A DNA stretch of 57,702 bases, from the NCBI GenBank assembly GCA_031406385.1, contig JANOHI010000022.1, positions 1 through 57,702 on the forward strand, written 5' to 3'. Shown here piece by piece: positions 5,816-30,116 of the stretch. Source of the DNA: Acidimicrobiia bacterium. GTDB lineage: Bacteria > Actinomycetota > Acidimicrobiia > Acidimicrobiales > JANYDT01. The first letter of the stretch is position 1; every line of letters begins with the position of its first letter. The notes beneath the pieces were generated by a model. It did not search any database. It had not been told where the DNA came from and saw only the letters and a list, made by a program, of their open reading frames with translations. A program made the position numbers and the translations under genes.

Positions 5816-6062
5816 GCCTGGAACCGTAGGGACCTGGGGTTTCCCGGCAATACCGTCGATATGAACACTGCGTTTCCAGCCCGTTCGGCAGCGAGCGGCG
5901 GGGCTCGTTCGCTCGCGAAGTTCGGGGTTTGCGTTGCTCTCAGAGGTTCCATGCCGCTGGCGCAGCACCACGACGTGATGAGAATGGCCGGACGCGTCTC
6001 GCGTTTCCCCTGGTCAGCGCGTGGCGCCGTTCTATTCTCCTTACAGCAACTCAAGCCCCGAA

Positions 6063-7775
6063 CTACGACAGGTCGTGAGCTTCGAAGACGGGTGTGGGGC
6101 GGGCCATGCCCTTCAACTCGACTTCTCCGATGCGGTCGGCCCGCAAGGCGTCCCCGAGCATGGCGACGACGCGATCGGACACCAGGATCTGCCCGCCCCT
6201 GGCCTCGCCGCACAGGCGCGCCGCGAGATTCACCACGCTGCCGATGGCGGTGTATTCAAAGCGGCCTTCGAACCCGATCTGTCCGCAGGTGGCGTACCCC
6301 GCGGCCACACCGACTCCGAGGGTGAGGTCGTGGCCGCGCGTCTTCCATCGCTCCGACAGCCGACCCACCCGTTCACGCATGCCGATGGCCAACGTGATGG
6401 CACGGCGCGCCGGGTCGTCGCATGGAATCGGGTCGTTGAAGAACACCATCATGCCATCGCCGGTGAACTGGCTCAGGGTGCCGCCCTGCTCGAAGATAAG
6501 TGGACCTACGGCATCGTGCATCTCGCGCAACACCTCCATCACGTCCTCCGGCTCTGAGCGTTCGGCGAAGGACGTGAAGCCACGGAGGTCGCAGAACAAC
6601 GCGGTGATGTCGCGACGATGGCTCTTGAGCAGATCCACTCCGCCTGCCGCGATCACCTCCATCAGTTGCGGGGGGACGAAGCGCTGCATGAGGTTGAGTT
6701 GTTCGACCTTGCGCACCTGGTCGGCGACGCGCGCTTCCAGCTGTTGATTCCATGTGTGGAGTTCGGCGGCCTGCGCCTCGACCTGTGCGAGGAGTGCCTG
6801 TTCGCCGTCGCGCAGTCGCTTTTTCTCCACGCACGCACCGACGCGAGCCTTGAGGAGCACCGGGTCAAACGGCTTGGGAAGGTAGTCCTCGGCCCCGGCC
6901 TCGATACACCGCACGATGCTCGCCATGTCGTCGAGGGCCGAGATCATGATGACGGGGATGTGGCGGATCGCCGGGTCGTTGCGGTGCCGTTCGAGCACGG
7001 CGAACCCGTCCATGCGGGGCATCATCACGTCGAGCAGCACGAGATCGATCCCGGAGTCGGGCTCGGCGAGACGTTCGAGGGCTTCGATGCCGTCGCGGGC
7101 CTCGATGACGCCGTAGCCGAGCCGCTGCAGCCGTCGGCCCAGGACGTCTCGGTTCGCCTCGTCGTCGTCGACCACCAGGACCATCTCCAGCCGACCGGCC
7201 GCGGCCTCGGGTGTGCTTCCGGTGTCGCGGCTGACGAGAAGAGGGCCGCTGGTGAGCCGGGTGGCCAGCTCGCCGAGACGCGCTGTGGCCGAGGCGAGGC
7301 GTTCGAGGTCGGCGACGGGCAGGGCCCCGGGCTCGGCGAGAAGCGCCTTGGTCATGGTCGTCAGCTCATCGACCCTGTTCGTAAGCGTGCTTATGGCCTC
7401 AGTGGCCGCGGTGCCGACCGACTCGCCGTCCTCGGCGATGAGGCCGGGCACGAGTTCCAGCACGAGCCGCGCGGTGGCCCGGACGGCGTCGAGCTGTTGT
7501 GTCGTTGCGGCCGTGATGCCGTCTTCTTCGAGGAGGAGCTCGGAATAGCCGATCAGGTGGTTGACGGGCGTTCGCAGCTCGTGGCGCAGTTCCCGGATCT
7601 CGTCCGGAGTCATGGTTTGGTGGGTGGCGTCGTGAGGGGTCCGGCGGTGCTGGAGCAGCGAAGCGGAGGCGCATCGCGCCGTAGTGGCGAAGTCATGGTT
7701 TGGTGGGTTGTTCGGTGAGCGCGCTGGTGTCGCGAGCGCTGGCGCCGGGTTCATCTGCGGTGTCACGCCGAGCAC
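6063..7775 (-). CDS. H-box (HisKA-like, no ATPase domain) + receiver + coiled coil + class III adenylate/guanylate cyclase
   Basis: N-terminal H-box: RHELRTPVNHLIGYSELLLEE (His codon 7581-7583) followed by about 110 helical residues with no HATPase_c. Receiver: MVLVVDDDEANR...LVLLDVMMPRMDG...DYLPKPF. Cyclase: FCDLRGFTSF...FTGDGMMVFFNDP...VVNLAARL. An alternative start is the ATG at 7613 (MTPDEIREL). Confidence 0.85.
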   Translation of the reverse strand: MLGVTPQMNPAPALATPARSPNNPPNHDFATTARCASASLLQHRRTPHDATHQTMTPDEIRELRHELRTPVNHLIGYSELLLEEDGITAATTQQLDAVRATARLVLELVPGLIAEDGESVGTAATEAISTLTNRVDELTTMTKALLAEPGALPVADLERLASATARLGELATRLTSGPLLVSRDTGSTPEAAAGRLEMVLVVDDDEANRDVLGRRLQRLGYGVIEARDGIEALERLAEPDSGIDLVLLDVMMPRMDGFAVLERHRNDPAIRHIPVIMISALDDMASIVRCIEAGAEDYLPKPFDPVLLKARVGACVEKKRLRDGEQALLAQVEAQAAELHTWNQQLEARVADQVRKVEQLNLMQRFVPPQLMEVIAAGGVDLLKSHRRDITALFCDLRGFTSFAERSEPEDVMEVLREMHDAVGPLIFEQGGTLSQFTGDGMMVFFNDPIPCDDPARRAITLAIGMRERVGRLSERWKTRGHDLTLGVGVAAGYATCGQIGFEGRFEYTAIGSVVNLAARLCGEARGGQILVSDRVVAMLGDALRADRIGEVELKGMARPTPVFEAHDLS

Positions 7776-7781
7776 TCGACC

Positions 7782-8162
7782 TCATGGCGCGACCGGCTCG
7801 GTGACTCCGAGTGCAGCCATCTTCGCCAGTAGTCGGGGGAGGTCGACCGGCTTGGTGTCGTAGTCGTCGCAGCCCGCCTCCATCGCCTTCTCCCGATCGC
7901 CGGGCATGGAATGAGCCGTGAGGGCGATGACCGGGATGGCCTCGGTGGAGGCGTCGGCCCGAACCGCCCGGGTGGCCTCCCAGCCGTTCATGATCGGCAG
8001 GCTCATGTCCATCAGGATGAGGTCGGGACGCTCCGTCTTCGACATGGCCACGCCCTCGGCTCCGTCGACGGCCATCACCACCGTGAACCCGCGCCGCTCC
8101 AGCCGCCGCGACAGCATGTCGCGGTTCATCTCGTTGTCCTCGACGATCAAGATCTTCGGCAT
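7782..8162 (-). CDS. single-domain response regulator (CheY-like receiver)
   Basis: Receiver motifs: MPKILIVEDNEMNRDML...LILMDMSLPIMNG...ALTAH...DYDTKP. I use the ATG at 8162 rather than the track start at 8180. The stop lies 6 nt upstream of the cyclase ORF start. Confidence 0.85.
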   Translation of the reverse strand: MPKILIVEDNEMNRDMLSRRLERRGFTVVMAVDGAEGVAMSKTERPDLILMDMSLPIMNGWEATRAVRADASTEAIPVIALTAHSMPGDREKAMEAGCDDYDTKPVDLPRLLAKMAALGVTEPVAP

Positions 8163-28700: not shown

Positions 28701-30041
28701 CCCGGACGCGAGGACGTCGTCCATGATCCGGTTGAGCCCGGGCGTCCTGCCGCTGCCGTCAGTGGTCCTGAACCCGCGGATCTCATCCCAGACCGTGACC
28801 GCACCATCTCGGCTGCCGAAGGTGACCGCCATGTGAGAGGCATTCGACAGTCGTTGCGCCGTGCGGCCGATCTCGGGAAGCGTCCGCTCGAGGTCACCCG
28901 GCGACGAGCTGATGACGCGCATGATCTCGGCGCTGGCCGTCTGCTGCTCCAAGGCCGCATCGAGATCGTTGAACAGCTTCGCATTGGCAATGGCGATGGC
29001 GGCCTGCTGGGCGAACGCCTCCCCGACTCGCACGTCGGCGGGCCCGAACGGCCGCACTTCTGTGCGACCGATCGTGATCACGCCAACGAGCGCGTCATCG
29101 TGGAACATCGGGATCGCCATCGAGCTACGAAGGTTTGCTCGACGGGTGGCGTTCGCCGTGACGGGATCAGTGTGGAGGACGGCGAGGTAATCGTCGAGCA
29201 GCACCACGGATCGCCGGCGGATGGCTTCGCCCGTGCTCTGAGAAGCCTCGTTAGAGCGGCCGCCCATTGCTCGGTGTCCGAGGGCGAGGTCGACATTGAG
29301 CGCAGCTACGACCTCGGTGTGATGACCGTCCTCTATGAGGATGGCACCGACCTGCGCATCACACAGCTCGGCGATACGACGCAGCACCGTGTCGAGCACA
29401 ACCGGGAGATCTCCCGGGTGTTCACTGATGAGTCGAAGCACCTTGCTCGTGGCCGTCTGCAACGCGAGCGCGTCGGCCACCTCTCGGCGCTGTTGGGCCG
29501 CGGTGACGGCGTTGCCCGCCTGCACGGCGAAGGATTGCAGCAACTCCACGTCGTCGTCGGTGAACGGCTCGATCTCGCGTCGGGCGACGAAGATTCCGAG
29601 CGGAGCGGCGGAGCTGCGAAGCGGTACGTACACGGACGACTTGGTCTTCGTGGTGACGGCTGCATCCCGTGATTGCGCGTACTCGTCGCCGAGCGCCGAT
29701 TGATCATCGAATCGCAGCACGTTTCGATCGCGCAGGACCTCGGTGAGCGCCGAGACGTCACTGTGGTCACGGAAACCTTTCAACCGACGTCCGTCCCCGG
29801 CCATGTTGAAGCCGTAGTTGGCGATTCGCTCGCCTTCCACCACGAAAACGGACGCGACAACCCCACCCACCAGAGCGGCCGAGTGAAACGCGATCTCGAA
29901 CAGAACGGCCTCGAGGTCGTCGCCGGCCTCGGCCACCGCCCGCAGCACGCCGGCGAGCGCGGCCTCACGGCGCTGGGCCCGGGCCAGGCGCGCCGCTAGA
30001 TCGGTGGGTTCGTCGGCTGGTTGGCTGTCTGCTGCCGTCAC
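22701..30041 (-). CDS. giant cytoplasmic hybrid histidine kinase: about 10 tandem GAF domains + HisKA + HATPase_c + two receivers + HPt
   Basis: Ten inter-GAF helices were counted by eye. H-box: [21 protein letters not shown]-box: [13 protein letters not shown]-boxes: DTGIGI / [10 protein letters not shown]. Receiver 1 (about 23562-23906): [13 protein letters not shown]...[11 protein letters not shown]. Receiver 2 (about 23172-23508): [13 protein letters not shown]...[11 protein letters not shown]...DYLSKP. HPt (about 22704-23021): [16 protein letters not shown], with the His codon at 22860-22862. It has a GTG start with GAGGAG 5 nt upstream. Confidence 0.92.
24700..29960 (-). repeat. in-frame tandem array of about 520-560-bp GAF-module repeats (10 units) inside kinase 2
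   Basis: Linker-coding blocks recur at about 24711, 25240, 25750, 26271, 26800, 27350, 27900, 28460, 28980 and 29510. Units 4-9 form a roughly 1.05-1.1-kb two-GAF super-repeat. Confidence 0.85.
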
Positions 30042-30069
30042 GCGACTCCTCGTGGCTGGGTTCCGTGCT

Positions 30070-30116
30070 GTTCAGCAAACCACGAGTCGGCGGCGGCCAC
30101 CGTGATCAGGATCACA
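30070..30116 (-). promoter_or_regulatory. candidate CRP/GlxR-dependent promoter of kinase 2: TGTGATCCTGATCACG + 16 nt + CGTGGTTTGCTGAAC
   Basis: The palindrome spans 30101-30116 (15/16 match to TGTGA-N6-TCACA on the coding strand). The identical 15-mer lies at 30070-30084. Spacing is the same as upstream of kinase 1. Confidence 0.55.

Follow-up and report, generated by a model that had tools for sequence, protein, structure and literature searches.

Two paralogous operons predicted to link multi-GAF histidine kinases to receiver-gated class III cyclases in an Acidimicrobiia bacterium

Introduction

The stretch of DNA analysed here, 57,702 nucleotides from an Acidimicrobiia bacterium (assembly GCA_031406385.1, contig JANOHI010000022.1; henceforth the window), has a G+C content of 65-67% and carries two gene sets, each leading from a giant histidine kinase with a long array of GAF domains to a class III nucleotide cyclase with a receiver domain. 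They are, in our assessment, probably two anciently diverged paralogous operons of a single system, in which a multi-GAF kinase would act through a phosphorelay on a receiver-cyclase, and into which passenger genes have been inserted. A first-pass annotation, made from the letters alone, had already proposed that the kinases are wired through a phosphorelay to receiver-gated class III cyclases, and this core of its picture has gained support, as the linkage is conserved across phyla and the phospho-acceptor and catalytic motifs are intact. Other parts of that picture, which counted further genes as components of the modules and the GAF arrays as sensors of the cyclase product, fared less well.

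Results

Two same-strand gene sets of unlike architecture

All genes of both sets lie on the minus strand, and Pfam bears out the 21 GAF domains in total that had been counted at first. Module 1 comprises the kinase HK1 (9248-15850; 11 GAF domains, HisKA and HATPase_c, without a receiver and without Hpt, by Pfam and GAF segmentation), whose start codon was picked from the ribosome-binding site and from the alignment with HK2, a stand-alone receiver (7782-8180; a single-domain response regulator, Pfam E 7e-27), and cyclase 1 (6063-7613; 516 aa, with a HisKA-like N-terminus, Response_reg and Guanylate_cyc by Pfam). Module 2 comprises the kinase HK2 (22701-30041; 10 GAF domains, HisKA, HATPase_c, two Response_reg domains and Hpt by Pfam) and cyclase 2 (19382-20485; Response_reg, a long helix and Guanylate_cyc by Pfam). 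Between kinase and cyclase, each module also holds an AbiEi-like gene, and module 2 a gene for a short-chain dehydrogenase/reductase (SDR). Between the modules, the cyclases are 55%, the AbiEi-like proteins 56% and the kinases ~32% identical; for the AbiEi-like, AAA_14 and cyclase proteins of the window, NCBIfam yielded nothing more specific than generic receiver matches. The proposal that the modules are tandem copies of one gene order holds insofar as two same-strand sets are real, but the copies are not contiguous, as three unrelated genes intervene, and the kinases as well as the cyclases differ in domain architecture.

A kinase-cyclase linkage conserved across phyla

In relatives, whose loci are cited here by L numbers, the conserved unit is the kinase together with the receiver-cyclase, and it comes in two old architectures. 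Scanning independent loci of full-length receiver-cyclases with one genome per species, we found a HisKA-HATPase core on the same strand and at most 3.5 kb upstream at 24 of 30 loci, labelled as Actinomycetota, Chloroflexota, Alphaproteobacteria, Binatia and Acidobacteriota, the labels of metagenome-assembled genomes (MAGs) not always being reliable; the linkage that had been proposed is thus conserved for kinase and cyclase, but the AbiEi-like gene was found at none of these loci. In many phyla the pair is flanked by housekeeping genes.

Type I, represented by module 1, leads from the kinase via a stand-alone receiver to a cyclase bearing an ATPase-less His-box domain and a receiver. The same trio occurs in L007, L008 and L012, and also in the Dehalococcoidia genome L009, where no other gene intervenes. 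The stand-alone receiver is 80-96% identical in L007, L008 and L009 and always lies between kinase and cyclase; its closest paralogue is the second receiver (REC2) of HK2, at ~39%. Type II, represented by module 2, consists of a hybrid kinase with a REC-REC-Hpt extension and a receiver-cyclase. In L001, with a gene overlap of 4 nt, and in L002, the multi-GAF hybrid kinase directly abuts the receiver-cyclase, and the HisKA-HATPase core, REC1, REC2 and Hpt of HK2 are 53-95% identical to their counterparts in L001-L006. No second module was found within the 10-kb flanks of the fetched relatives, so having both types side by side seems to be a peculiarity of this lineage. A decayed type I module is seen in L116 (9700-13900), where a 55-aa HATPase remnant, 77% identical to the C-terminus of HK1, is followed by an AbiEi-like gene, a PhdYeFM/PIN pair, a receiver-cyclase without the His-box domain and a CRP-family gene.

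Both kinases have intact H, N, G1, F and G2 boxes, with HisKA and HATPase_c above threshold (Pfam and motif reading), and neither shows a clear membrane segment. The acidic pocket, phospho-Asp, Ser/Thr and Lys are kept in the stand-alone receiver, in both receivers of HK2 and in both cyclase receivers, and the Hpt motif of HK2, SHTLKS (HxLK), is intact. The N-terminal domain of cyclase 1 is modelled by AlphaFold as four helices (residues 3-122) without an ATPase domain, and its H-box, RHELRTPVNH, with the histidine His11, is invariant in 113 homologues. Read from these motifs, each module appears to encode a His-Asp-His-Asp relay complete in its four sites, the second and third of which sit on different carriers in the two modules: the H-box, the Asp of the stand-alone receiver, His11 of cyclase 1 and the Asp of the cyclase receiver in module 1, and the H-box, a receiver Asp, the Hpt motif and the Asp of the cyclase receiver in module 2.

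Cyclases with an unusual substrate-selecting residue

The Guanylate_cyc matches of the two cyclases reach 72 and 64 bits, against a Pfam cut-off of 21.9. Both metal-binding Asp residues as well as the transition-state Asn and Arg are kept in 119-120 of 120 homologues and in both paralogues of the window; the possibility of dead cyclase domains, raised along with the original proposal, finds no hold in these residues, and both enzymes look catalytically competent. The purine-selecting position is Gln in all 120 homologues and in both paralogues, the Lys of adenylate cyclases never being found, and the second substrate position is Thr, as in class IIIb. The best PDB relatives of the cyclase domain are Pseudomonas aeruginosa CyaB (3r5g, E 3e-31) and Synechocystis Cya2 (2w01, E 2e-29).

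A helix of ~60 residues links receiver and cyclase domain in the AlphaFold model. Coiled-coil signal transmission occurs in other class III cyclases, and the linker helix would be compatible with it.

Homologues of cyclase 2 are plentiful in many metagenomes (73-98% identical, one labelled Ilumatobacteraceae), and its closest public relative (99% identical) is encoded on L010, a contig from the MAG of an uncultured member of the Acidimicrobiia. The homologues of cyclase 1 all share its layout of His-box, receiver and cyclase in ~510 aa; they are 55-90% identical and reach contigs labelled Chloroflexota and Dehalococcoidia. Separately, at Bradyrhizobium loci (L035-L041, L055), homologues of the cyclase domain (~50% identical, with no receiver match) are located near a CRP-family gene, and a palindrome, TGTGTCAyAAGTCACA, lies upstream of an ORF of ~720 aa.

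GAF arrays of fluid length

The GAF units of HK1 and HK2 recur every ~176 residues and sort into subtypes. The N-terminal units of the two kinases pair with each other at 47% identity, and the 'QTATSE...NPGDL' type and one further type are common to both, while the remaining subtype has been expanded independently in each kinase, with units that are 45-56% identical within one protein. Orthologous multi-GAF kinases (L001, L002, L009, L016) span 1479-2914 aa with about 6 to 16 or more GAF domains; the length of the array is thus fluid, its copy number changing quickly between relatives.

GAF domains of phosphodiesterases (PDEs) and of cyanobacterial cyclases bind cyclic nucleotide monophosphates (cNMPs). 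This is the background to a rival explanation, advanced by the first-pass annotation, by which the locus is an integrated four-gene unit, including the wHTH/DUF559 protein now called AbiEi-like, and self-referential in that the GAF arrays bind the product of the cyclase. The arrays themselves speak against it. A search for an NKFDE-like motif in HK1 and HK2 found none, and a sequence search of the PDB with the GAF units (E <= 0.01) returned no GAF domain of a PDE or of CyaB, the matches being weak and confined to the GAF domains of DevS/DosT (the nearest), cyanobacteriochromes and sigma-54 regulators. Binding of cNMPs by the array thus appears unsupported here, and the second half of this explanation depends on the gene between kinase and cyclase.

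A variable slot between kinase and cyclase

AbiEi1 (8220-9173, minus strand) encodes a winged helix-turn-helix (wHTH) domain fused to a Vsr/homing-endonuclease-like domain and matches Pfam AbiEi_4; AbiEi2 (21611-22555, minus strand), which encodes a fusion of the same kind, matches AbiEi_4 and the PADLOC model AbiEi. The N-terminal ~190 residues of AbiEi1 are likewise recognised by PADLOC AbiEi (E 2e-12 over residues 13-187). In its AlphaFold model (predicted local distance difference test, pLDDT, 88), the N-terminal ~200 residues superpose on Streptococcus agalactiae AbiEi (6y8q; Foldseek, E 3e-4, probability 1.0), and the C-terminal ~100 residues align structurally with the catalytic domain of the homing endonuclease I-Bth0305I (3r3p; TM score 0.77, root-mean-square deviation 2.9 A) and with Vsr (1cw0/1vsr). 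The original label DUF559 survives as a nuclease fold, seen by Foldseek, but not as a Pfam assignment, where all matches stay below threshold: of 25 family members, 8 match DUF559 (best E 0.007) and 23 match MTES_1575 (best E 2.6e-4; 15.3 bits for the window protein, cut-off 38.2). DUF559 proteins have the catalytic motif ExDGxxH; compared with it, the invariant E-V-S-P-F-F-T-H of the AbiEi-like family retains Glu and His and has Ser for Asp. No AbiEii (DUF1814) toxin lies next to the AbiEi-like genes, the next gene being the receiver or the SDR.

Does this gene belong to the circuit? In favour of the integrated four-gene unit, it occupies the same position and strand in both modules, and L003, L007 and L116 carry it after the kinase or the kinase remnant. 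It is missing, however, from all 30 scanned receiver-cyclase loci and also from L001, L002, L008 and L009. In L007 it is 56% identical to the window protein, compared with 78-96% for its neighbours, and AbiEi1 is no closer to AbiEi2, which ranks only ~27th among its homologues, than to ~100 other members. Other members turn up in unrelated surroundings (L114, L115). Taken with the GAF evidence, this makes the four-gene, self-referential explanation decidedly unlikely. Other cargo occupies the same slot elsewhere: a MazF-like and a ribbon-helix-helix gene (read by eye) in L010, the locus with 99% cyclase identity; an HTH_31 gene and a 122-aa gene in L004 and L005; DUF559 and TauE in L006; VapBC in L116; and a 622-aa gene on the opposite strand in L016. 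The AbiEi-like genes would accordingly be described as selfish or accessory passengers in a variable slot between kinase and cyclase, apparently outside the circuit.

The SDR of module 2 (20618-21541, minus strand; Pfam), which had also been listed as a module component, is confined to the closest relatives L003 and L010 and absent from L001, L002, L004-L006 and L016. It is a lineage-specific passenger of module 2. SDRs in L008 and L114, considered as signs of a conserved partner, were dismissed, being merely 27-34% identical to the window protein.

The termini of the slot have features of their own. A hairpin extends over and past the stop codon of HK1 (9226-9260, minus strand; dG -12.9 kcal/mol), a strong GC hairpin lies just past the stop of HK2 (22658-22687, minus strand; dG -21.4 kcal/mol), and analogous hairpins follow the kinase stop in L007 and L003. 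A GTGTCACAC-like motif precedes both AbiEi-like starts (9197-9205 and 22622-22630) and is present in L007 and L003 too. Together, this upstream motif and the hairpins suggest that the AbiEi-like gene travels as a self-contained cassette.

Carrying this thought further, the AbiEi-like/nuclease genes might be free-standing selfish elements, homing- or addiction-like, that have repeatedly entered the kinase-cyclase junction, possibly because they recognise a sequence conserved there. Such elements would account for the C-terminal resemblance to I-Bth0305I and Vsr beside an N-terminal half on AbiEi, for the separate upstream motif, and for a slot that elsewhere holds MazF-like, VapBC or HTH_31 cassettes; moreover, different family members sit in the same slot of close relatives, which indicates turnover. 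On the other hand, the invariant Ser in place of the Asp of ExDGxxH makes nuclease activity of the family doubtful, the mere 56% identity of the two window copies argues against recent homing between the modules, neither a target-site duplication nor a shared flanking target was found, and the slot could be no more than a permissive intergenic site. We hold this explanation as possible but tentative; it refines the preferred reading of two diverged operons with passengers and does not exclude it. As a side reading, the AbiEi-nuclease fusions might belong to a novel class of homing-type elements, free-standing and directed at this operon junction.

Shared promoter elements upstream of the kinases

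An identical 15-mer and a CRP-type palindrome at equal spacing upstream of both kinases had been noted at the outset, and both elements were found as described. The 15-mer CGTGGTTTGCTGAAC is located at 15905-15919 (minus strand), 54 nt before the GTG start of HK1 at 15850, and at 30070-30084 (minus strand), 28 nt before the GTG of HK2 at 30041; it has exactly these two copies in the window, where 0.08 would be expected by chance. In both modules a palindrome of the form TGTGATCC(G/T)GATCAC lies 16 nt ahead of it: the perfect TGTGATCCGGATCACA at 15936-15951 upstream of HK1, and TGTGATCCTGATCACg, with one mismatch, at 30101-30116 upstream of HK2. The 16-nt spacer between the two elements is not conserved (6 of 16 positions by hand), so that palindrome and 15-mer stand out as footprints. 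Taken alone, the palindrome is no rarer in the window than chance predicts (3 matches, 1.2 expected).

The 15-mer contains a candidate extended -10 element (TGgTTTGCT). If TTTGCT were the -10 hexamer, the palindrome would be centred at -41.5. Class II CRP promoters of Escherichia coli have TGTGA-N6-TCACA centred at -41.5. Among relatives, the same composite, TGTGATCtcGATCAC-N17-CGTGGTTTGCT, precedes the kinase in L006, where a cNMP_binding gene is divergently placed; a CRP-family gene adjoins the cyclase in L116; and in L019 the kinase is preceded, at a distance of ~100 nt, by a perfect palindrome. That the cyclase product feeds back onto kinase transcription through the putative CRP site is plausible, though it would be a lineage-restricted feature.

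A metagenome scan for the composite palindrome-N18-GTGGTTTGC returned 25 matches, about as many as expected by chance for 18 specified bases (by a rough estimate of database size), and none of them precedes a multi-GAF kinase; on this system the scan carries no information. One exception to the chance matches, TGTGA-N6-TCACA-N17-CGTGGTTTGCT, precedes a conserved small gene (MTCDYNGFNIESF..., ~77 aa) that neighbours uvrB; it recurs on homologous soil metagenome contigs (L091-L113, e.g. L111 4058-4364), in which the spacers have diverged and both elements are kept. Scans of 5900-9400 for sigma-70 promoters and intrinsic terminators returned nothing.

Short repeats and neighbouring genes

The 24-nt block that lies 3' of both cyclase genes had been taken as evidence that paralogy extends beyond the coding regions. 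Its identity of 20/24 stands, a value never reached when the two short intergenic regions 3' of the cyclases were shuffled 1000 times, but as evidence of paralogy it fails: neither L007 nor L003 has the block 3' of its orthologous cyclase, and a third copy, in inverted orientation, is found close by in the window. We rejected it as a relic of duplication on these grounds. Its core is a 21-nt repeat, AGTTCGGGGCTTGAGTTGCTG, with the consensus AGTTCGGGGyyTGmGTTGCT. Copy 1 is at 6044-6064 (minus strand); a solo copy lies 3' of cyclase 2 between convergent genes (19344-19364, minus strand), its GTTGCT arm forming a small hairpin; the third copy (5919-5939, plus strand), in the spacer between cyclase 1 and a GntR gene, whose start near 5815 was deduced from L007 and from the G+C content at third codon positions (GC3), is inverted relative to the first and 104 nt away from it, the pair being complementary at 18 of 21 positions. 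It seems better read as a small local repeat, and the inverted pair might act as an operator or constitute a small element, mobile or structured. Apart from this, the spacer between the receiver and cyclase 1 (7613-7712, minus strand) contains two copies of a 16-nt direct repeat, CCCACCAAACCATGAC, the second of which holds the start codon of cyclase 1.

The three genes between the modules (16041-19294) encode, by Pfam, an AAA_14/DUF4143 ATPase (minus strand), an EcKL kinase (plus strand) and a further SDR (plus strand), and their reading frames are backed by GC3. For the ATPase (16041-17345), PADLOC gives a match to PDC-S01, a candidate defence system (E 6e-86), and a TGTGA-N6-TCACA site with one mismatch (17331-17346) overlaps the start of its gene. 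Directly upstream of the HK2 promoter lies a VapBC-type pair (30316-30988, minus strand), composed of a PIN-domain gene (30316-30729) and an 83-aa gene (30737-30988) judged VapB-like by eye; these are the real genes there, an ORF on the opposite strand (30262-30960) having been rejected as non-coding by GC3. Farther away, at 51526-56352 (plus strand), an OmpR-type response regulator, a HAMP histidine kinase and a P-type cation ATPase follow one another, an ordinary two-component unit unrelated to the modules.

Such a neighbourhood invites the explanation that the whole is an anti-phage defence island with Pycsar-like cyclases. The PycC models of PADLOC match both cyclases (E ~1e-24), its AbiEi models match both wHTH proteins, and the PDC-S01 match and the VapBC pair fit the same picture. 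The PycC similarity, however, reflects generic class III homology (Pfam Guanylate_cyc), the cyclases have two-component genes for neighbours and no adjacent Pycsar effector, the AbiEi-like proteins have no AbiEii partner, and the kinase-cyclase pair resides among housekeeping genes in many phyla. We regard a defence island as highly improbable.

Discussion

How might the two operons work? Under the preferred reading, a giant cytoplasmic kinase would sense an intracellular signal through its 10-11 GAF domains, and phosphate would move along a four-step His-Asp-His-Asp relay to the receiver of the cyclase. The direction and order that we envisage lead in module 1 from the His of HK1 to the Asp of the stand-alone receiver, onwards to the His of the cyclase 1 His-box, and finally to the Asp of the cyclase 1 receiver; in module 2 the first His, the Asp and the Hpt His would all reside in HK2, from which the receiver of cyclase 2 would be charged. 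Phosphorylation of the receiver could then switch cyclic-nucleotide synthesis via the 60-residue helix, presumably by activation rather than inhibition, and a cNMP-bound CRP-family regulator, encoded elsewhere, may feed the product back on kinase expression with class II geometry. The AbiEi-like/nuclease genes and the SDR would have landed as passengers in the slot between kinase and cyclase.

Several points weigh against this scenario. Rather than serving as a relay step, the His-box domain of cyclase 1 might mediate dimerisation or act as a phosphatase, and either of the two receivers of HK2 could serve the relay. The Gln in place of the purine-selecting Lys leaves the cyclase product uncertain, and the insertions and hairpins after both kinase stops may have uncoupled the transcription of kinase and cyclase here. 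With respect to the feedback, a CRP-type site is absent upstream of the kinase in L001, L002, L008, L009, L016 and L017, and tblastn found no homologue of the L006 cNMP_binding protein in the window, where a window-wide CRP-family profile search was not run.

A bolder version takes the substrate position at face value: the Gln-Thr cyclases would make a product other than plain cAMP, be it cGMP, a mixed purine output or a non-canonical cNMP, which some of the alternating GAF subtypes would bind, such that kinase, cyclase and CRP-type promoter formed a closed, self-tuning loop. We consider this rather unlikely.

In our literature searches, no description of this operon was found. The system is widespread, occurring in uncultured Acidimicrobiia, Chloroflexota, Alphaproteobacteria and other phyla with an invariant, unusual substrate-selecting residue, and the window offers a natural experiment, with two wirings of what is probably one relay within a single genome. 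It also provides a protein set for asking what 10-16 tandem GAF domains integrate, what a Gln-Thr cyclase produces, and whether the CRP-type site closes the loop. At the same time, it cautions against deducing function from a gene order that is repeated: the gene whose presence in both modules is most striking is apparently a selfish passenger.

Each part of the locus has its counterparts among known systems. With the AbiE type IV toxin-antitoxin system, the N-terminal ~200 residues of the wHTH protein share the AbiEi fold and profile similarity; the AbiEii/DUF1814 toxin is lacking here, and the wHTH protein instead has a C-terminal domain with a Vsr/DUF559/MTES_1575-like nuclease fold. Compared with CRP class II promoters, the kinase promoters have a perfect or near-perfect palindrome at a fixed spacing to a candidate extended -10, but the candidate hexamer TTTGCT is without the usual A at position 2. 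The cyclases share their metal-binding and transition-state residues with CyaB (3r5g) and Cya2 (2w01), which, unlike them, are not receiver-gated; the nucleotide-selecting position is Lys in CyaB, Glu in Cya2 and Gln in this family.

As for the relays, module 2 has the classical HisKA-HATPase-REC-Hpt layout of hybrid phosphorelays such as ArcB, BarA and TorS. Single-domain receivers and ATPase-less His-box proteins have precedents in Spo0F -> Spo0B and in ChpT, and module 1 is akin to these Spo0F/Spo0B-type split relays in having a single-domain receiver followed by an ATPase-less His-box domain. What sets both modules apart from multistep phosphorelays is the output, a nucleotide cyclase and not a transcription factor, and, in module 1, the fusion of the second His carrier to the terminal response regulator itself.

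The nearest relative in principle is CyaC of Spirulina platensis and Anabaena, a class IIIb cyclase with the layout REC-GAF-GAF-HK-REC-cyclase (HK, histidine kinase), and it is mainly for this single-protein cyanobacterial enzyme that two-component control of class III cyclases has been documented biochemically. The cyclase of Spirulina CyaC is activated by the intrinsic kinase, which transfers phosphate to the proximal receiver (PMC3009899). Shared with CyaC are GAF sensing, a histidine kinase, a receiver directly ahead of a class III cyclase and the Thr at the second substrate position. CyaC is, however, a single polypeptide with a two-step relay and two GAF domains, whereas here the domains are distributed among two or three genes, the predicted relay has four steps, the GAF domains number 10-11, and the substrate Lys is replaced by Gln. 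To the principle, the split operons thus add far larger GAF arrays and two relay architectures that would be equivalent in function, built from parts that are not homologous. The locus is a split, expanded variant of the CyaC principle.

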